Program-made: the position numbers and the translations under genes | The notes under the pieces: generated by a model | What the model was told of the DNA's origin: nothing | Database searches by the model: none | What the model saw: the letters and a program-made list of their open reading frames with translations, nothing else | In this document: positions 3,612 to 64,000 of the stretch, in pieces | Layout of the letters: every line of letters starts with the position of its first letter | Numbering within the stretch: position 1 is the stretch's first letter | Source of the DNA: a virus | Taxonomy: Duplodnaviria > Caudoviricetes | Virus record (IMG/VR): IMGVR_UViG_3300019872_000002 | Location: 13,186-77,185 of that record | DNA length: 64,000 nt | Strand: one strand, 5' to 3'

Positions 3612-3816
3612 ATGTAGAAAATGTAGTTCAGTACGCTGGACTGTAATAAGCAAAACAAAATTCGGTCAAGGAGATAGCTCTACCGACACTTATGTTCAAT
3701 GTGACGACTGTGACAATACTTCGGTACATGTCACTATTCACGGTTTCCCAACGACTTATGATATCGTGAGAGAGGTTCAAGATGATTATACTAAAGATAA
3801 TAGTTATGATATGTAA
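3604..3816 (+). CDS. small zinc-ribbon protein
   Basis: MPKCRKC...QCDDC has two CxxC pairs; start placed at ATG 3604. Confidence 0.6.
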   Translation: MPKCRKCSSVRWTVISKTKFGQGDSSTDTYVQCDDCDNTSVHVTIHGFPTTYDIVREVQDDYTKDNSYDM

Positions 3817-4189
3817 ATATTACGACTCTAAAACCAATACTTACAATCTGATGCAGCAGTTGCAGGATATGGCTGATGCAAGAGACAGGAATCCTGACCG
3901 TAAGCCTCCTAAAATGTATTATAACTATGCTCAACAAAAATGTTATGAGGAAGCATCGGTTATCCCTCCTCTTAAAGTATTTCTTGGCTGGACTCCAATG
4001 AAGGAGTGGATAGGTAAGTGTGAGCCATTCATACCTTCTCCAAAAATAAGATGGATATATCCAGTATCATACATTACATCAGAGGTAGATAGGTATCTAA
4101 GCGAAATGAATTTATCTTATGTTGAATTTAGAAAAAGATGTCATGAAATTTTAGGAATACCAAAAGGAAAGGAAGGCGATGAAATTTAA
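3806..4189 (+). CDS. hypothetical protein
   Basis: ORF 3782-4189 of the track, start shifted to ATG 3806. Confidence 0.6.
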   Translation: MICKYYDSKTNTYNLMQQLQDMADARDRNPDRKPPKMYYNYAQQKCYEEASVIPPLKVFLGWTPMKEWIGKCEPFIPSPKIRWIYPVSYITSEVDRYLSEMNLSYVEFRKRCHEILGIPKGKEGDEI

Positions 4190-56571: not shown

Positions 56572-57084
56572 TTATTTCTTTCCTTTTTTTGTTATTTGAA
56601 AATCCTTCCCATTCGGGATAACCCTAAAATTTGTCTCACTGCTTGCGAACTGAATGTTCATCATGATCTCATTAACCCTGTCCTTATCCGTGCCTCCCCA
56701 ATAATAATTAGGGTTCACCTGATAAACACTCTTACTAACCGGAATAAGAAGCCCTGAGACCTTTAAATCATGAAAGGCAGTATTTACACTGGAATCCTTA
56801 TAGACCCTATTCTCACCATCTATAACAAGCGAGGATACGAAGTCTATAAACAGCTTCCGGTTATACGCCTCATTCCTGATCATATTCCTACTATCCATCT
56901 CCTCACTGATCCAATCCATCAGTATCCTTTGCAGCTTGCTCAACCCAAGGATAAGGTATAAACAGTTATGGAACCGCTTAGTACCCGTCATCATTATCTC
57001 AACATCCTTAATCGTAGGCTTTAAAACCCCTTCCTCAAGATGATGCCCATCAATGTAACTCAATTTCTTACTCTTTCTTTCCAT
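56572..57084 (-). CDS. RepL-like winged-helix protein
   Basis: SVNTAFHDLKVSGLLIPVSKSVYQVNPNYYWGG resembles the RepL-family HTH/wing; start placed at MERKSKK. Confidence 0.55.
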   Translation of the reverse strand: MERKSKKLSYIDGHHLEEGVLKPTIKDVEIMMTGTKRFHNCLYLILGLSKLQRILMDWISEEMDSRNMIRNEAYNRKLFIDFVSSLVIDGENRVYKDSSVNTAFHDLKVSGLLIPVSKSVYQVNPNYYWGGTDKDRVNEIMMNIQFASSETNFRVIPNGKDFQITKKGKK

Positions 57085-57175
57085 TATACTCCGTTTTTGA
57101 ATACTAATAATACTATTATAAACCAAATCTAAATATTTTATAAATAACATCACTAATATTATTTTCAATTTCCGT

Positions 57176-57217
57176 AATACTCACTACCAGTATCAGCTAA
57201 TACTGACCACCAGTATT
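57176..57217. promoter_or_regulatory. tandem palindromic operator pair AATACT-N7-AGTAT(C/T)
   Basis: 19-bp units at 57176-57194 and 57199-57217, just downstream of a TATTTTTG -7 box (57226-57233, - strand). Confidence 0.55.
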
Positions 57218-57740
57218 ATCAAAATCAAAAATACTATCAACTATTGCGCACAGACACTTTAAACCCACTTTTACCGAAAAACACTACCCTTAGTAATCAA
57301 TGAGATTACAGCATCTTTCATAAAACTTTTTATGCTTTACTTGATATTATAGTCGATAGTGGTAGGAAGGTTGCATAACCCCTCCAGAACCGCCCCCTTC
57401 GCCCTGGGTTTCAAAGTGCTTTCATATTGACCGGGTGGGGTCGAAAACCGAATGTGACCTTTGAATACTAAAGGGGCTAATAGCAGGGAGGCTATGTATT
57501 AGGCTATGTGAGGCACTACCTATATGTGCGCTATGCTATCAACCAAAAACAGATACATCATGCTTAATAAGGTGGCTTTATCATTACTTGTCTCCATACG
57601 GTGGACACCATGTATTCACACACCTTTAAACCCTGTTTTTGCAATTCACCTCACAGCCTAATTACCGGCATATTGCACCATATCATTCCAACTCTTTACC
57701 TTTGAACAGCAATATCGCTAAACACCTAATTAAACACCTT

Positions 57741-58217
57741 ATGAACTATGCCTTTTTAGAGCCTTTTAAGGCCTCCGATTTTACAATTAAGCGTAATGAC
57801 CTACCAACTAAAAAAAAACCTCTTAAACAGCCTAAAAACGGGGAAGAACAGGAAAGTAAGGCGGATAATCCCCCATCTTTTCAAATCCCTGCCGTTGGTT
57901 ATCTACATATATGTAATAAGTTGTTTGTTTGGCGAAGGAAACATAAAGTAACGTCTGAGGCTTTAGATGTAATGTTAATGACATATGCTTATTACGCTGA
58001 TAAGGGCTTAGGTGTGACTAGTTGGTCTATAGCAATGCATTGTGCAAGTGCTGTACATAATGTGGAAAGAGAAATGCAAGGCTGTAGAAAGAAGTTAGGC
58101 ACCTTGAGCAGACGTGGTTTAGTAATGAAATTAGGAAAGAGCTCAAGAGGTGCGGACTTGTATTGTCCTACTTTACGGGCTATTGAGGAGTTAAATGAGA
58201 TATTCTCACAAAAATAA
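57741..58217 (+). CDS. putative winged-helix regulator
   Basis: C-terminal CRKKLGTLSRRGLVMKLGKSSRGADLYCPT helix-wing pattern; start placed at ATG 57741. Confidence 0.5.
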   Translation: MNYAFLEPFKASDFTIKRNDLPTKKKPLKQPKNGEEQESKADNPPSFQIPAVGYLHICNKLFVWRRKHKVTSEALDVMLMTYAYYADKGLGVTSWSIAMHCASAVHNVEREMQGCRKKLGTLSRRGLVMKLGKSSRGADLYCPTLRAIEELNEIFSQK

Positions 58218-58292
58218 ATTAAAATAAATAGTGCCTCAGTGGTGCTGAATACGGGGTTTGTAAAGAAATTATTAAAATATGTAAAGTTTTTA

Positions 58293-58349
58293 TTTGCATT
58301 TATAAAAAGTATTATTACCTTTGGAGTGCGGTAACGATGTAGTTACTGC
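58293..58349 (+). promoter_or_regulatory. consensus Bacteroidota promoter for early operon with 5' hairpin
   Basis: TTTG (58293-58296), 19 nt, TACCTTTG (58316-58323); GCGGTAAC/GTTACTGC hairpin just after. Confidence 0.8.
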
Positions 58350-58366
58350 TTAGCGGCTTGCAGGTC

Positions 58367-58585
58367 ATGAAAAATTCAAACACTATTTCAATAACAATTA
58401 AACAATCAACAGGTAACTTATGGTACAAAAACCTAATTGGTCAGACTTTAAACGCAACTAAATACGATGATGACTTTTTGGTTGACGTGGAAGACAATAA
58501 CATTTATATGGACTACATCCCTGTTCGCGGGTTTATGTCTGGCATAGTTGAGGCTAAAGATTGCATTGTTAACTCTAATATCTAA
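58367..58585 (+). CDS. hypothetical protein
   Basis: First ORF after early promoter. Confidence 0.6.
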   Translation: MKNSNTISITIKQSTGNLWYKNLIGQTLNATKYDDDFLVDVEDNNIYMDYIPVRGFMSGIVEAKDCIVNSNI

Positions 58586-58589
58586 GTCC

Positions 58590-58877
58590 ATGAAAAAGGT
58601 AGCATTATACACATTAGAATCAGGCGATTACTTTTATCACGGTGGTGTTCATTTCCAGTTGAAACATAAGCGTCAATTGTTTTGCACTTGTATCATTCAG
58701 CAGCACGACGATAGAATAGAGGACACGTACGGGGTTTATATATCAGGGGATTGTTTGTCATCCCCGATAAACGATAAAAGCATTCCTATTCCTGCAAGCG
58801 TGGGAATCTGTCGCCTCGCCTCCTTAGTTGGTTGCGGGGTTGTGGCAGTAGTAAGCAGGAATAGGCCTTATTATTAG
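58590..58877 (+). CDS. hypothetical protein (3' end uncertain)
   Basis: MKKVALYTLESGDYF; C-terminus runs through a structured RNA motif. Confidence 0.5.
   Translation: MKKVALYTLESGDYFYHGGVHFQLKHKRQLFCTCIIQQHDDRIEDTYGVYISGDCLSSPINDKSIPIPASVGICRLASLVGCGVVAVVSRNRPYY
58785..58865 (+). ncRNA. structured RNA motif, copy 1
   Basis: TTCCTGC/GTGGGAA hairpin, single T, CTGTCGC/GTGGCAG stem, TA. Confidence 0.45.
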
Positions 58878-58889
58878 ATTATCGAGATC

Positions 58890-59162
58890 ATGTTAAACTA
58901 CAACACATTATTAAAAGTACAGCCCTTTAATACACCGGGCACACGTGTAACTAAAGTGGTTAAAAAACCATACGGTTATAGGATACAGATGTTTAATAAT
59001 TATATCACGCTGTATTATATTAAGCTTGTTATTAATGCTAATGGCAGCGCAAAAGCGAGCTACCTAGTACAAAAGAATTATCACCCTGACAATAGATATA
59101 CCGTCTACTTTGGCGTAGATGGTTACGAGATCACGCAAAAGGAATATAAAGCGTTAAATTAA
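58890..59162 (+). CDS. hypothetical protein
   Basis: 90-aa ORF. Confidence 0.6.
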   Translation: MLNYNTLLKVQPFNTPGTRVTKVVKKPYGYRIQMFNNYITLYYIKLVINANGSAKASYLVQKNYHPDNRYTVYFGVDGYEITQKEYKALN

Positions 59163-59168
59163 TTCCCT

Positions 59169-59230
59169 TTCCTCGATAGTCGGGGAATCTGTCAGCGCAA
59201 CACTCTACGGGGTTTGTGCATTTGGCAGTA
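59169..59230 (+). ncRNA. structured RNA motif, copy 2 (intergenic)
   Basis: TTCCTCGA/TCGGGGAA hairpin, single T, CTGTCA/TGGCAG stem with inner stems and TACG loop, TA. Confidence 0.5.
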
Positions 59231-59265
59231 CAGGACAATGGTGTTTTGTACATAAAGCTTGCAGA

Positions 59266-59568
59266 ATGAAAACTTTAAAAATCACAGTACTATTAGTATT
59301 CCTTGCAGTGGCAGGGTATTCACAAAAGAAACAAGCCGTATTAATCGCTGATGAAACTACAATGACACAGTTATCGGCTAGTGTTAAGATAGAGACTAGC
59401 AATGAGCGTATCTTTAAGCTCATTACAGACAAGTTTGGCAGTATACTGACCGGATATAGCGTTAAGTTTAAAAAAGACCGTGCAGGGGCTTATAAAGAGT
59501 ATTCAATTCCATTCAAAAACGAGTATTCAGCCAAAGTATTGGAGTTTGTTAAATCGCTTAATAAATAG
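59266..59568 (+). CDS. secreted (signal-peptide) hypothetical protein
   Basis: MKTLKITVLLVFLAVAGYS-Q signal-peptide pattern. Confidence 0.65.
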   Translation: MKTLKITVLLVFLAVAGYSQKKQAVLIADETTMTQLSASVKIETSNERIFKLITDKFGSILTGYSVKFKKDRAGAYKEYSIPFKNEYSAKVLEFVKSLNK

Positions 59569-59574
59569 TCTAGC

Positions 59575-59715
59575 ATGAAAACCATTGAAAAGATAGAGCG
59601 TATGGGTTACAAGGTGACCTACGCGGCAAGTGGTAGAATGGTCTTTGCAGAGAAAAACGGCACTAAGTCTACCGCTCCTAATATTACTCAATTGTATAAG
59701 TTTCTTAAAAAATAG
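59575..59715 (+). CDS. small hypothetical protein (46 aa, not in ORF track)
   Basis: MKTIEKIERMGYKVTY..., fills gap. Confidence 0.55.
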   Translation: MKTIEKIERMGYKVTYAASGRMVFAEKNGTKSTAPNITQLYKFLKK

Positions 59716-59719
59716 CACC

Positions 59720-60085
59720 ATGAAAGATTTATTTGAATTTACAGAATTGATACCGGCTGAGGTACAGAACATCTTCACTGATGTGAATCCCTTTGATGAA
59801 TATACCTATGAGGAATGTGGGAATATGCTTAAAGCCTGCGAGGCCAAAGGTTATACATTTGAGTATGGTTTAGATGCTGTACCGTTCAACCTAAAAAAGA
59901 TAACACCGTTTTACACACTAGTAGAACAACAATACGATAGTGAAGATAATTATATCATTTGTAGTGATAACAGGCTTTACCAAGTATTAGATGCGGATAT
60001 GATTGATATATGTGGAGAATATGTTACAATGGAAGATGCTTTAATGATGGTAGGTAGTAATCCGTTTAGAATAACAGGAACATAA
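59720..60085 (+). CDS. acidic hypothetical protein
   Basis: MKDLFEFTELIP...GYTFEYGLDAVPFNL; start shifted to 59720. Confidence 0.65.
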   Translation: MKDLFEFTELIPAEVQNIFTDVNPFDEYTYEECGNMLKACEAKGYTFEYGLDAVPFNLKKITPFYTLVEQQYDSEDNYIICSDNRLYQVLDADMIDICGEYVTMEDALMMVGSNPFRITGT

Positions 60086-60089
60086 GGAT

Positions 60090-60239
60090 ATGAAAACGAT
60101 AATAGAATACACGACCTATAACAAGTTAAAAGGCAATAGGATTCAAACTTACTTAAAAGAGGTGGCCAACTTAGCTTTATATAAAGAACTAGAATCGGCT
60201 GGTGTTATATGGGGATTAAAAGTTATTGAGCTGAATTAA
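60090..60239 (+). CDS. small hypothetical protein (49 aa, not in ORF track)
   Basis: ATG 60090 to TAA 60239, fills gap. Confidence 0.5.
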   Translation: MKTIIEYTTYNKLKGNRIQTYLKEVANLALYKELESAGVIWGLKVIELN

Positions 60240-60267
60240 TTAAAAAATACGATCTAAAAAAATTAAA

Positions 60268-60495
60268 ATGACAAAGCAACAATTCTTCTCTGGCTATCCT
60301 TTCATCTTTAAAAAAGACAATAGGGAATATAGATACATTCACAAACACCGGAAGATATATAATAACGACAATGCACTTAGTTATTATTGCGGTGTTGGTG
60401 ATTACGATAGTGTTTCTTTCAATGCACACAAAACACTATTTGGCGTCCTTCATTGTGTAACTGTTTTATATAAAGATTGTAAAATAATAAAGTGA
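60268..60495 (+). CDS. hypothetical protein
   Basis: 75-aa ORF. Confidence 0.55.
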   Translation: MTKQQFFSGYPFIFKKDNREYRYIHKHRKIYNNDNALSYYCGVGDYDSVSFNAHKTLFGVLHCVTVLYKDCKIIK

Positions 60496-61415
60496 TGAAT
60501 TTAAGAAAAATACTTATATCAGTTAGCGGCGGCAGAACATCTGCAATATTAGCCTACCTATTGTGGAATAAATACAAAAATGATCCCACTGTACAATTGG
60601 TTTTTGTGTTCGCTAATACTTCAAGAGAGGACGAAAAAACACTAATTTTTGTTAAAAATTTAGAGGCTTATTTCGGCTTTCCTATCGTATGGGTTGAAGC
60701 AGTAGTACATCACGGTACACGTAAAGGAAGTACGCATAAAGTAGTCACGTTTGAAACAGCCAAACGTAATGGCGAGGTTTTCGAGGATATTATAAGCAAA
60801 TATGGCATTCCTAATAAAGCTTTCCTACACTGCACTAGAGAGCTTAAAACAAACGCTATTAGGTCTTATATGAAGTCAATAGGATGGGGAGGTTATAAGA
60901 AGTACACCACTGTAATAGGGATGCGAGCTGACGAAATAAAAAGAATAGATAAGGATTACAAACCCGGTATGCCATTTTCTGATTACGAGTTTAACGACAT
61001 TAAATGTCAATGGTATCCTTTAATTGCATGGGGTATAACTAAAGCAGATGTAGCTGTATTCTGGAAGAAACAACTGTTTGACCTTGGATTAGCAGATTAT
61101 GAAGGTAATTGTAAAAAGTGTTATAAAAAGACAGACACTAAGATTATTACTCAGGTTGTTTTAGACCCGACAGATGACTGGATAGAAAGGATGGAAAAGA
61201 AATACGGGTTTTTCTCTGGCAATAGAAATATAGATAAATGTCCGCCTCCTTACACCTTCTTTAGACACAACAGGACATTAGCGGAGGTAATGGAAGGTTA
61301 TGTACCGGGGTTTAGATTAGCTATTGACAAGTCTATGATTACAGATGGTGCAGAATACCAATTTATCGATGATCAGGATCAATGTGCAGAAGGCGAATGT
61401 TCACCGTTTCAATAA
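60492..61415 (+). CDS. PAPS-reductase-like (adenine nucleotide alpha-hydrolase) protein
   Basis: SVSGGRTS PP-loop, FANT.RE, CTRELK, GMRADE..R, YPL, GNCKKC. Confidence 0.8.
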   Translation: MMNLRKILISVSGGRTSAILAYLLWNKYKNDPTVQLVFVFANTSREDEKTLIFVKNLEAYFGFPIVWVEAVVHHGTRKGSTHKVVTFETAKRNGEVFEDIISKYGIPNKAFLHCTRELKTNAIRSYMKSIGWGGYKKYTTVIGMRADEIKRIDKDYKPGMPFSDYEFNDIKCQWYPLIAWGITKADVAVFWKKQLFDLGLADYEGNCKKCYKKTDTKIITQVVLDPTDDWIERMEKKYGFFSGNRNIDKCPPPYTFFRHNRTLAEVMEGYVPGFRLAIDKSMITDGAEYQFIDDQDQCAEGECSPFQ

Positions 61416-61424
61416 AATAGGGAT

Positions 61425-61583
61425 ATGGAAAAACCACCAATTTACCTGGAAAATCAGGTTTCTGAAAAACAGGCTCAGTTTATCGCAGACTTGGACGCAA
61501 TTTATCAGCAACTAGCAAAGCACACAGAGGACAATAAACAATTAATCGCAAACGCTAAGATGTTTTTAGCACAATTTAAATAA
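61425..61583 (+). CDS. small hypothetical protein (52 aa, not in ORF track)
   Basis: ATG 61425 to TAA 61583, next ATG at 61586. Confidence 0.55.
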   Translation: MEKPPIYLENQVSEKQAQFIADLDAIYQQLAKHTEDNKQLIANAKMFLAQFK

Positions 61584-61585
61584 CC

Positions 61586-61846
61586 ATGAGAACATTCAGC
61601 ACAATAACAGGAGCTTTTAATTACATCAAAAAGCATTTGAATACTGGAAATGAATTGACCTTAAATGACAGTATCCATTTTGGAGTTGGGAAAACGGTTT
61701 ACATCTGGTTTAAGGATGCGGAAAATCTTAACATAGGTTTAGTACCAAACGAACGTAATCAGCTCTTTACCGACCTTAAAACTGACGAACAAATAAAGAG
61801 GGCAATCTCTTATATATTTCAAACAGACGGCTATCTAGTACTTTAA
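61586..61846 (+). CDS. hypothetical protein
   Basis: 86-aa ORF. Confidence 0.6.
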   Translation: MRTFSTITGAFNYIKKHLNTGNELTLNDSIHFGVGKTVYIWFKDAENLNIGLVPNERNQLFTDLKTDEQIKRAISYIFQTDGYLVL

Positions 61847-61889
61847 ATCAACCAATTACTAATAGGCATAAGCCACAACATAAAGCATT

Positions 61890-62360
61890 ATGAATACTCT
61901 TTCAAACTACAACAAAATAGCACTAGGCAAAGTAGATGGTAAAAATATATTCCTTTCACCACCATCATGGGACTGTAATTGGTATTGGGGATTTGGATAC
62001 TTAGGCAATAGAGATTGTCATTATCATATTGATGGTCTTAAAAAGATAGAGACTTATAACATTGAAAAATCAACTTGGGAATACGAGTTTGTAAACCTTT
62101 TTGACGGCTTAAAAAAACATTTCGGTGAGACATTTATTGTAAAGGAAGATGGCGACATATGGACCTTAGCGGAGTTGTTTCAAACTTTCTACGCTTTAAA
62201 AGAAACAGCAGAGGTGTTAGGACGTGGCGGTTCACATTACACAAATAACCCTTGTAAAGATTTAATCATCAATAAGTACGAGGTAACACGTATAAACAAC
62301 GTTGTATTACCGCAAGTATTCGAGGAGATTTATAAAATCCTAAATAAATATTCAAAATAA
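61890..62360 (+). CDS. hypothetical phage protein
   Basis: 156-aa ORF with PSWDCNWYWGFGYL. Confidence 0.7.
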   Translation: MNTLSNYNKIALGKVDGKNIFLSPPSWDCNWYWGFGYLGNRDCHYHIDGLKKIETYNIEKSTWEYEFVNLFDGLKKHFGETFIVKEDGDIWTLAELFQTFYALKETAEVLGRGGSHYTNNPCKDLIINKYEVTRINNVVLPQVFEEIYKILNKYSK

Positions 62361-62365
62361 AAACA

Positions 62366-62720
62366 CCCCCTTGATTGTTGGCAGACACTTAATAAGAAGT
62401 GTAACGGATCATTCCCGTGTCAAGGGCTAACACCTGATAAGTGCTTAAACTATCCGCATTGTAATGTTGCGTCATTACAGCCGATTTAAGACACGGCAAA
62501 TTGTCGAGGGTATAATCTACCATACAGATTGCTTTGAGCCTTACCGAGGGCTTTAAACTCCGGTGTAGGGATAAAGAATCTACTTACAACCCGAAGCAAT
62601 AAGAGGTAGCGCAATTAAGCCGTAACGGGTTTAAAAAAGGGAGACTAACAATTTCCGCAATTGCAAGATGTATGCAAGTGTAAGCGATAAAGGCATGTTA
62701 GGGAGTTATCCCGTGCTGAG
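62366..62720 (+). ncRNA. putative large multi-stem non-coding RNA
   Basis: ORF-free, with many stems (CCCTTGA/TCAAGGG, TGTAATG/CATTACA, ATTGCTT/AAGCAAT, TTGCA/TGCAA, GGGA-GTTA-TCCC). Confidence 0.4.
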
Positions 62721-62727
62721 AAGTAAA

Positions 62728-62777
62728 ATGTATACAGGTGTGTATCCTGTACTGACGAGTTGAAAACAACGAAACAT
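62728..62777 (+). ncRNA. type III hammerhead ribozyme
   Basis: ATG-TA / stem I TACAGG..CCTGTA / CTGACGA / stem II GTTG-AAAA-CAAC / GAAA-CAT; predicted cut after A62732. Confidence 0.85.
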
Positions 62778-62785
62778 AAAAGCTT

Positions 62786-62974
62786 ATGATAACTAAAGTA
62801 TATATAGGTGGTGAACAAGCATCTATTACAATCAAATATGAGATAGCCAGAAAAGACTATGTAATATGGTTAGGATTTAGGTTTGTTGGTATAGTTAAAA
62901 CTATTGATGAAGCTAAAGAGATAGTGACCTCTAGTCTTTTGGAGTACTGGAAAACAGATATATCATTTCAATAA
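62786..62974 (+). CDS. hypothetical protein
   Basis: 62-aa ORF 8 nt after hammerhead. Confidence 0.55.
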   Translation: MITKVYIGGEQASITIKYEIARKDYVIWLGFRFVGIVKTIDEAKEIVTSSLLEYWKTDISFQ

Positions 62975-62986
62975 ATAACTGATTAG

Positions 62987-63226
62987 ATGGTAACTAAAAC
63001 AGTAAAGTCTAAAGTTTTTTGCCCAAAATGTAATTGTAAAGACTTGTATCTTATTGAGATATGGCAAGGTCATACAATTGAATGGGAGCAATTAAACGGT
63101 AAACTAGACCGTAATGACGGCGTACTTGAACATGGCTCACCTTACCGACTGGAAGGCAAATGCAAAAACTGTCAACATACTTGGAAAGTTAAAAAAGCCA
63201 CAAGTATTGATGATGCTCTAATTTAA
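62987..63226 (+). CDS. zinc-ribbon protein
   Basis: CPKC...CKNC. Confidence 0.65.
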   Translation: MVTKTVKSKVFCPKCNCKDLYLIEIWQGHTIEWEQLNGKLDRNDGVLEHGSPYRLEGKCKNCQHTWKVKKATSIDDALI

Positions 63227-63234
63227 ACAACAAA

Positions 63235-63495
63235 ATGAACCAAAATTAGGCAATAGCAACAGCAGAGGAAATAAGCATAGGCATTCTACATTCTGTAGGG
63301 AATTACTATGTATCTAATGAGGGTACGAAAAACAATCCTAACTATCATGTATGGGTGCCGGGTATTACACATGCAACATGTGACAGTGCTTACAATGATC
63401 TATCATTAGCGGTAGTAAGGTGCAATTTTTTGGCTAAGCAGAGGACACCACCTTTATACCCGCCCAATAGGGATACGGATATTCAAAAGAAATAA
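63235..63495 (+). pseudogene. hypothetical gene with in-frame TAG at codon 5
   Basis: ATG AAC CAA AAT TAG followed by 81 open codons filling the gap to the next gene. Confidence 0.5.
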
Positions 63496-63525
63496 CATAA
63501 ACATAAATCATATAATTAAAGCAAA

Positions 63526-63825
63526 ATGAAAAAAGAAAAGTTCTACATCGTACGTACTTACTCGGCAGGGGTTTGGTTTGGTAACATTAAAAAATTAGAG
63601 GGTACCGTGGCTATCCTTACAAACGCTCGTCGTTTATGGTCTTGGAGCGGAGCGGCTTCATTGAGTCAATTGGCCGTTGAAGGCTCTAAAAAACCTACAG
63701 CGTGTAAATTCACTGTCACAATCACAGATGAAGATGGCGTTTACTTACCTCAAGTAATTGAAGCTTTGCCATGCACAGAGGCAGCAGTTTTGAACATTAA
63801 TTCAGTACCGGAATGGAAAATGTAA
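63526..63825 (+). CDS. DUF6948-like protein
   Basis: YIVRTYSAGVWFG...ARRLWSWSGAASLSQLAVEG. Confidence 0.7.
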   Translation: MKKEKFYIVRTYSAGVWFGNIKKLEGTVAILTNARRLWSWSGAASLSQLAVEGSKKPTACKFTVTITDEDGVYLPQVIEALPCTEAAVLNINSVPEWKM

Positions 63826-64000
63826 TTAAAGAATTTCTAAACATAAAGCCTATAAGCTATGGCTCTGGCTATGGCTCTGGCTCTGGCTATGGCGATGGCT
63901 CTGGCGATGGCTCTGGCGATGGCTCTGGCTCTGGCTATGGCTCTGGCTCTGGCTCTGGCTATGGCGATGGCTCTGGCGATGGCTCTGGCTCTGGCTATGG
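63813..64000 (+). CDS. Gly-rich (G-S/Y/D)n repeat protein, truncated by window end
   Basis: MENVIKEFLNIKPISYGSGYGSGSGYGDGSGDG... Confidence 0.7.
   Translation, partial: MENVIKEFLNIKPISYGSGYGSGSGYGDGSGDGSGDGSGSGYGSGSGSGYGDGSGDGSGSGY
63858..64000 (+). repeat. coding hexanucleotide tandem repeat (TAT/TCT/GAT)GGC
   Basis: Uninterrupted from 63858 to window end. Confidence 0.95.

Follow-up and report, generated by a model that had tools for sequence, protein, structure and literature searches.

What does a self-cleaving RNA do when it lies only a few nucleotides ahead of a small phage gene? All three hammerhead topologies were reported in bacterial and phage intergenic regions in 2010–2011 (PMC3088659; PMC6155905), with the phage examples described by Perreault et al. 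2011 (PMC3088659) and by de la Pena and Garcia-Robles 2010 (reviewed in PMC6155905), and the role of the phage hammerheads is still regarded as open (PMC6765202). The locus analyzed here lies near the end of a 64,000-nt stretch of viral DNA, hereafter the window, which forms the final 64 kb of a 77,185-bp IMG/VR record rated complete by CheckV. An initial annotation, made from the sequence alone, had placed a type III hammerhead 8 nt upstream of an early gene and had described hammerheads between small phage genes as largely unclear in function, a description that agrees with the published accounts (PMC3088659; PMC6765202). Judging from its sequence and its relatives, we consider positions 62728–62777 to be an active, functional type III hammerhead of a recurrent phage subclass, with a probability of roughly 0.8. 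The sections below describe the motif, its family, and its genomic setting, and then weigh what the ribozyme may do there.

The hammerhead motif at 62728–62777

Direct reading of the window sequence gives a complete type III hammerhead at 62728–62777 on the plus strand, in which stems I, II, and III (6, 4, and 4 bp) surround the core, stems I and II being closed by loops and stem III being open. The 5′ strand of stem III is AUGU (62728–62731, positions 16.4–16.1), which ends with U62731 as U16.1 and is followed by H17, the A of a GUA triplet, at 62732; the predicted scissile bond is therefore 62732/62733. Stem I (UACAGG/CCUGUA, 62733–62738 with 62746–62751) forms a hairpin spanning 62733–62751 and carries the 7-nt loop 1 UGUGUAU (62739–62745), which is identical in L050, one of the related loci described below. 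The core segment C3 U4 G5 A6 C7 G8 A9 (CUGACGA) occupies 62752–62758, and the 4-bp stem II (GUUG/CAAC, 62759–62762 with 62767–62770, including G10.1–C11.1) is capped by loop 2, AAAA (62763–62766). In both the Rfam alignment and that of our subclass model (R2, below), GAAA (G12 A13 A14 A15.1, 62771–62774) is followed by CAU (62775–62777), and the ACAU at 62774–62777 supplies the 3′ strand of stem III, with an A15.1–U16.1 pair plus three further pairs. The ribozyme is separated from the ATG at 62786 by the A-rich 8-nt spacer AAAAGCUU (62778–62785).

The core therefore contains each element of the acceptance rule given in the methods of PMC3088659, namely C3 U4 G5 A6 N7 G8 A9 with position 7 free, G12 A13 A14 A15.1, U16.1, and an H17 that is not G. 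The three core-adjacent pairs (U62733–A62751, G62759–C62770, and A62774–U62731) are all Watson–Crick. The catalytic core, stems, triplet, and GAAA were found exactly where the initial annotation had located them, and its cut position (62732/62733) and 8-nt distance to the ATG are likewise correct on a reading of the sequence.

Several tests excluded a chance origin of the motif. A type III descriptor (CUGANGA, GAAA, and UH, with stem I of at least 4 bp and stems II and III of at least 3 bp each) was applied to both strands of the 77,185-bp genome and matched the window motif alone. Any loose match was obtained in 6 of 400 dinucleotide shuffles, or 0.015 expected per shuffled genome, and none of the 400 shuffles gave one as good as that observed (stems of at least 6, 4, and 3 bp). 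The descriptor likewise had no match in 285 kb of related phage loci.

The Rfam 15 model for type III hammerheads (RF00008, Hammerhead_3) aligned with the motif from end to end (model positions 1–54) at 30.1 bits, corresponding to an E-value of 0.022 when the whole window was compared with all 4227 families and of 6e-6 when this family alone was searched over the genome. Although the type III topology is present, this score falls below the gathering threshold of 48.5 bits, and a default Rfam scan therefore does not report the ribozyme; at the gathering threshold, five tRNAs were the only matches. The same model scored the other subclass members that were tested (11 of 11, from L044, L050, L055, and L056) at 27–45 bits, which makes the sub-threshold score of the window copy typical and no sign of a false positive. 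The window motif has every sequence-level feature of a hammerhead and of the subclass, and it falls short only of the Rfam score threshold. A second ribozyme of any class was not found when the whole window was scanned with Rfam at permissive E-values.

In local folding, pair probabilities were 0.85–0.99 for stems I and II. The AU-rich, 4-bp stem III had a predicted pair probability of 0.03–0.07 and is marginal on nearest-neighbor energies, and enforcing the hammerhead fold cost 1.1 kcal/mol over the minimum-free-energy fold with tertiary contacts not counted. In the minimum-free-energy folds of both the 121-nt and the 191-nt contexts, a 6-bp outer helix is predicted between GUAAGC (62680–62685) and GCUUAU (62782–62787) on the plus strand. 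This predicted helix, which has no covariation support, would enclose the ribozyme and cover the first two bases of the AUG, and it is compatible with the hammerhead fold.

A covarying subclass of phage hammerheads

Relatives were collected with the pattern TGTG-N9-CTGANGAG-N10-CGAAAC, in which the first bases of loop 1, some of the core, and the spacing are set and the stems are left unconstrained. The pattern matched 19 IMG/VR contigs, and in 18 of them the sequence folds into a complete type III hammerhead with the design of the window copy. One of these 18 is a 359-nt record with a hairpin ribozyme on the opposite strand, the same arrangement as in the sTRSV satellite. Across the pattern scan of IMG/VR and prokaryote genomes, the subclass has a design of the sTRSV kind, with UGUGUWD as loop 1 and NAAA as loop 2; the phage copies carry UGUGUUG, UGUGUUA, or UGUGUAU in loop 1 and NAAA in loop 2 (examples are L050:3396–3453, L055:1671–1728, and L056:5408–5465). 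A pattern with the exact loops had no match in metagenome contigs. As the public collections were scanned by exact patterns, the size of the subclass given here is a lower bound.

The pairing is supported by covariation in every stem. Among the 13 distinct sequences selected by the pattern, compensatory changes were found in 13 of the 16 pairs, with 92.8% of the cells paired versus 31–43% when the partners were slid. With 44 distinct members, 14 of the 16 base pairs covary, and 92.8% of the cells are paired versus 31–45% with slid partners; the covariation score of the subclass alignment was reached in none of 500 shuffles. Covarying pairs include all six of stem I, three of the four of stem II, and pairs 5–54, 6–53, and 7–52 of stem III, whose pair 8–51 is an invariant U–A. 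The window sequence adds pair types of its own, such as A–U at pair 5–54.

A covariance model of the subclass, R2, was built from 14 sequences with the window copy excluded. R2 aligned with the window copy over its full length (1–58) at 56.2 bits with an E-value of 1.1e-14, E-values of this model being rough as a result of a shortened calibration, and thereby assigned it to the subclass, near the bottom of the 40–82 bits seen across the family. The check with covariance models that the initial annotation had proposed thus came out in two ways, clearly positive with R2 and short of the threshold with Hammerhead_3 (30.1 versus 48.5 bits), and the type III identity that it had proposed is upheld by a covarying subclass present in phage contigs and prokaryote bins. 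With R2, most of the phage loci that bear hammerheads proved to contain two to five copies, and copies were also detected in 12 loci from prokaryote genomes, the majority of them Patescibacteria bins. At E ≤ 0.01, R2 had no match in 42 viral records (~2.1 Mb) that share the genes neighboring the window ribozyme.

The cleavage triplet is GUC in 28 of the 44 distinct members and GUA, as in the window, in another 12; CUGACGA, with C at position 7, occurs in 5 of the 44 and the loop AAAA in 13. Each of the variable features of the window copy (loop 1, loop 2, GUA, and C7) therefore recurs in other members. The U-initial 7-nt loop 1 and the R...A 4-nt loop 2 match those of sTRSV and of 43 other members in length and sequence, a loop pattern that has been described for natural full-length hammerheads (PMC3088659 Fig. 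S5; PMC6155905), in which a tertiary contact between the two loops would permit activity at physiological Mg2+. The subclass was also observed in bins of Patescibacteria (Saccharibacteria, Nomurabacteria, and Falkowbacteria) and in one Gammaproteobacteria bin (prokaryote-bin loci L063, L075–L079, L084, L090, and L094), with two to three tandem-spaced copies ~800 nt apart in L063 and L079.

Phage members of the family are located between co-oriented small genes, ~20–35 nt past a stop codon and 12–45 nt before an ATG. Roughly 80% of the copies have a stable hairpin directly abutting the first base of stem III, often with the near-identical sequence GGUGUCUUCAAAGACAC (L044, L045, L046, L049, L054, L055, L056, and L059; for example, L055:1645–1728 and L044:3290–3371), and the resulting unit of ~80 nt, hairpin plus hammerhead, is repeated three to five times between genes within 10 kb. 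Possible roles of the abutting hairpin are stacking on the short stem III, capping the 3′ end left on the upstream fragment, and marking a recombination boundary. We know of no description of such a composite hairpin-plus-hammerhead module.

The window copy differs from this pattern in several respects. It is the single copy in its genome, whereas related ribozyme-bearing phages carry two to five within ~10 kb, and the abutting hairpin is missing, the nearest predicted hairpin (GGCAU-GUUA-GGGA-GUUA-UCCC-GUGCU, 62692–62717, plus strand) being separated from stem III by 10 nt. No other member lies so far from the stop codon ahead of it (363 nt, versus ~30 nt elsewhere), and the ATG is nearer, at 8 nt, than in any other of the 48 family copies. 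With a GC content of 0.33, it is also the most AU-rich member. A separate tie between the window and a ribozyme-bearing locus was noted in L056, which encodes a 61-aa protein on its minus strand (3808–3987) with a subclass hammerhead 43 nt ahead of the gene. The putative early protein encoded at 59717–60085 of the window (motif GYTFEYGLDA.PFNL) is 57% identical to this protein, and there is no ribozyme at that place in the window.

The operon around the ribozyme

From ~57.6 kb to the end of the window, all ORFs are on the plus strand, the same strand as the motif. Upstream lies a gene for a 156-aa protein (61890–62360, plus strand), which is a complete natural short form, as its homologs in L102 and L104 end in similar ...YK(V)(L/F)AKY... 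tails. The family of this protein has no Pfam match and is marked by the conserved motifs WDCNWYWGFGYLG and GRGGSHYT.NPC; it comprises a short form of ~140–160 aa and a long form of ~200–206 aa with an extra C-terminal domain (...KVVEFMNE..I.TDDLK.IEG...). The closest relative found is L140, and its DNA similarity to the window stops near the domain boundary (~62338). The 156-aa protein diverges from the long forms exactly after ...EEIYKIL, and an intron or a split upstream gene was considered for this reason. This option was rejected because short forms exist and because the genome has no coding sequence for the C-terminal extension that the long forms carry (L002, L103, and L140); the Rfam scan also gave no group I intron signal.

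The first ORF of the block downstream of the ribozyme encodes 62 aa (62786–62974, plus strand). A search of 5.8 billion proteins returned only the ORF itself, and it has no Pfam match; having no relatives, it is a putative gene only, which the initial annotation presumed to be an early one. Behind it follow a 79-aa Zn-ribbon-like ORF, a DUF6948 protein (Pfam E-value 4e-22), and an ORF of Gly/Ser/Tyr/Asp repeats, the same Zn-ribbon, DUF6948-like, and Gly-repeat genes that had been named in that annotation. The record ends inside the GSGYGSGSGYGDGSGDGSG repeat ORF (63813–64000), which is cut by the contig end, and the assembly probably broke on this repeat despite the CheckV rating. Between the Zn-ribbon and DUF6948 genes is a 299-nt gap (63227–63525) with only short ORFs of 33 and 46 aa, within which 63264–63354 has 78% identity to the hypothetical gene gp050 of Cellulophaga phage phi46:3 (a 91-nt match); the gap may represent a small or disrupted gene. 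This match, together with an absence of Shine–Dalgarno sequences, suggests a Bacteroidota host, probably one of the Flavobacteriia.

Loci with homologous neighborhoods were fetched via the 156-aa, 62-aa, 79-aa, and 99-aa proteins, resulting in 42 viral loci (reached through the 156-aa, 79-aa, and 99-aa proteins) and 39 metagenome loci. None of these 42 viral and 39 metagenome loci has a hammerhead at the same place, and within the 42 viral records Hammerhead_3 had no match at E ≤ 0.1 and nothing resembled 62361–62785 at the DNA level. Since phages with the flanking genes lack the ribozyme, there is no positional conservation that would argue for a locus-specific role. A variant hammerhead was found in L106, a metagenome locus encoding a protein 64% identical to the 156-aa protein, at 223–282, which is 38 nt upstream of that gene. 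This variant, which scores 34 bits, carries an additional A between A9 and G10.1 as well as a 5-nt loop 2 and UGUAUCU as loop 1; the ORF-free sequence ahead of it is at least 220 nt long and, beyond the ribozyme, shows no similarity to the sequence upstream of the window ribozyme. Hammerheads thus sit at different junctions within this early-gene pool, a pattern that fits the varying identity of the genes flanking phage hammerheads (PMC3088659).

The 156-aa gene and the ribozyme are separated by an ORF-free leader of 366 nt (62361–62727, plus strand), a gap wider than any other in this compact operon. Stops occur in all six frames of the leader under any stop reassignment, and an alternative genetic code was rejected because several kinds of stop are present in every frame. 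Its GC content is 0.41–0.43 versus 0.30–0.36 in the flanks, and its fold is modestly better than those of shuffles (z −2.5). Within what the exact-pattern and fetched-locus searches covered, no homolog of the leader was found in INPHARED phages, in the 99 fetched loci (761 kb), or in the 39 flanking-gene metagenome loci, and the leader contained no Rfam family, tRNA-like element, or informative repeats. The "structured RNA" that the initial annotation had placed upstream of the cut is only this ORF-free stretch of raised GC content and modest fold score, for which these searches gave no homolog. There is no plus-strand terminator-like site in 57000–64000 and no Bacteroidota-type −7 box on the plus strand of the intergenic region, and the ribozyme is therefore probably co-transcribed with the 156-aa gene. 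Against this reading, a sigma-70-like site (AAGACA-17-TATAAT, 62488–62516) could start a separate transcript inside the leader, although such sites are fewer than in shuffles.

Probable function and comparison with known systems

Taken from the sequence, the motif is very probably a genuine self-cutting RNA in a phage operon, and the transcript is probably cut just ahead of the small gene. In the course of events that we favor, the ribozyme would be transcribed within a rightward (plus-strand) polycistronic RNA together with the 156-aa gene, would fold co-transcriptionally as stem II and GAAACAU emerge, and would then cut itself after A62732. Hammerhead cleavage leaves a 2′,3′-cyclic phosphate on the upstream RNA and a 5′-OH on the downstream RNA (PMC6155905), and the 5′-OH that the initial annotation had assigned to the downstream mRNA is what this established chemistry leads one to expect. 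The upstream product would consist of the 156-aa gene and a 366-nt ORF-free tail ending in the cyclic phosphate. The downstream product would carry its 5′-OH directly on the stem I hairpin, followed, after a 53-nt leader, by the block of the 62-aa ORF and the Zn-ribbon, DUF6948, and Gly-repeat genes. After the cut, the two RNAs would be held together by the 4-bp stem III and the predicted 6-bp outer helix; since these helices are now intermolecular and short, the fragments should part. Their separation would free 15 A-rich nt before the AUG and would uncouple the stability and translation of the downstream mRNA from the long structured leader. In effect, the ribozyme would then do naturally what RiboJ does as a synthetic insulator. 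We favor this downstream processing or insulation, with lower confidence in its specific consequences than in the ribozyme being active. A more elaborate version, a switch of translation and stability in which the outer helix and stem III shut the AUG before the cut and cleavage both opens it and frees a new functional RNA of ~370 nt ending in a cyclic phosphate, seems unlikely.

Precedents for several of these steps have been published. Clustered prophage hammerheads cut during transcription both in vitro and in E. coli, and in haloviruses HF1/HF2 an early gene has a hammerhead 13 nt ahead of its start codon, the 5′ end mapped for the major early transcript being at most 3 nt from the cut site of this hammerhead (PMC3088659). 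When an sTRSV-derived hammerhead was placed before a ribosome binding site in E. coli, the leader was removed and expression rose 2–10 fold (PMC6206723).

The same arrangement can be read from its other side, with the main job of the ribozyme being to mature the 3′ end of a new phage ncRNA of ~200–370 nt (62361–62732), which would bear a 2′,3′-cyclic phosphate, and with any downstream effects being secondary. We consider this distinctly unlikely, and the release of an upstream ncRNA is the less supported half of what the initial annotation had proposed. The properties of the leader are what speak for an ncRNA: the largest gap in the operon is free of ORFs in all frames under any stop reassignment, exceeds its flanks in GC content, and folds at z −2.5, and the sigma-70-like site at 62488–62516 could start a transcript of ~210 nt. 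ORF-free sequence of at least 220 nt also precedes the L106 hammerhead, but that leader is dissimilar and not significantly structured (z −0.97). As no leader homolog was found in INPHARED, the 99 loci (761 kb), or the 39 metagenome loci, covariation support is lacking, and the leader has no Rfam family or tRNA-like element. A mechanism for forming the 5′ end of such an RNA was not identified, and the other ribozymes of the family follow ordinary stop codons within 20–35 nt.

Loss of activity is a different concern, in that the motif could be a hammerhead by descent that has become slow or inactive, travelling as a relic with a recombined module of genes. Its weak stem III and the lack of a helper hairpin would then keep it from folding efficiently in the cell. 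The observations that count against an active ribozyme are largely those that suit a relic, namely a stem III of only 4 AU-rich bp with a predicted probability of 0.03–0.07, the missing abutting hairpin (the potential helper present in roughly 80% of relatives), and the lack of conservation at this position in phages that share the flanking genes. A single copy, where related ribozyme-bearing phages have two to five within ~10 kb, and an R2 score of 56 bits, near the bottom of the family range of 40–82, point the same way, and the Rfam score of 30.1 bits against the curated 48.5 also weighs against activity. Decay would be expected to alter the core, however, and here the core is unchanged at every position, its three adjacent pairs are all present, and both peripheral loops match the family consensus. 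Other members also have a stem III of 3–5 bp, and a short stem III favors product release; we therefore regard a relic as quite improbable. Hardly credible is a mere likeness by chance or a different element, such as a minus-strand terminator made from the stem I hairpin and a T-run. A terminator scan does list 62752–62732 on the minus strand and the Rfam score is below its gathering threshold, but none of the 400 shuffles produced a motif as good, the independently built family model gave an E-value of 1e-14, and terminator-like sites are fewer than expected from shuffles. The flanking ORFs are all on the plus strand, leaving nothing to terminate on the minus strand.

An active ribozyme at this locus adds one more phage hammerhead to a setting known since 2010–2011 and would not surprise a specialist. 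The subclass has wider implications, as a whole covarying group of phage hammerheads lies under the Rfam Hammerhead_3 threshold. It therefore escapes routine annotation, and with a dedicated model it is retrieved cleanly. With its 8-nt spacer and long non-coding leader, the window copy offers a simple natural test case for the purpose of phage hammerheads, which may be to insulate or activate the downstream gene or to mature the 3′ end of the upstream RNA. The composite hairpin-plus-ribozyme module of the relatives merits a study of its own.

Compared with the known intergenic hammerheads of phages and prophages, the window copy shares a canonical core, a position among co-oriented small genes of varying identity, and a proposed role in processing a polycistronic transcript. 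It differs in being single, whereas phage and prophage hammerheads form clusters flanking genes, and in having a 366-nt ORF-free leader, not a stop codon, ahead of it; its distance to the start codon is 8 nt as opposed to 13 nt in HF1/HF2. Bacterial type II examples commonly have a pseudoknot, whereas the loops of the window copy point to loop–loop contacts of the sTRSV kind. With its own subclass (alignments A1–A3 and model R2), it shares the 6-bp stem I, a loop 1 of 6–7 nt starting with UG(U/A)G, a 4-bp stem II with G10.1–C11.1, loop 2 NAAA, a stem III of 3–6 bp, and an A-rich tail. The sTRSV hammerhead has the same 6-bp stem I and 4-bp stem II, with UGUGCUU in place of UGUGUAU as loop 1 and with a 4-nt loop 2 of the same R..A form (GUGA versus AAAA). 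sTRSV is a rolling-circle satellite RNA with a partner ribozyme of opposite polarity, whereas the window ribozyme is encoded in the DNA of a phage operon and has no partner. RiboJ likewise stands between a variable leader and a translation start, and it carries an added 23-nt hairpin after the ribozyme, which the window copy does without.
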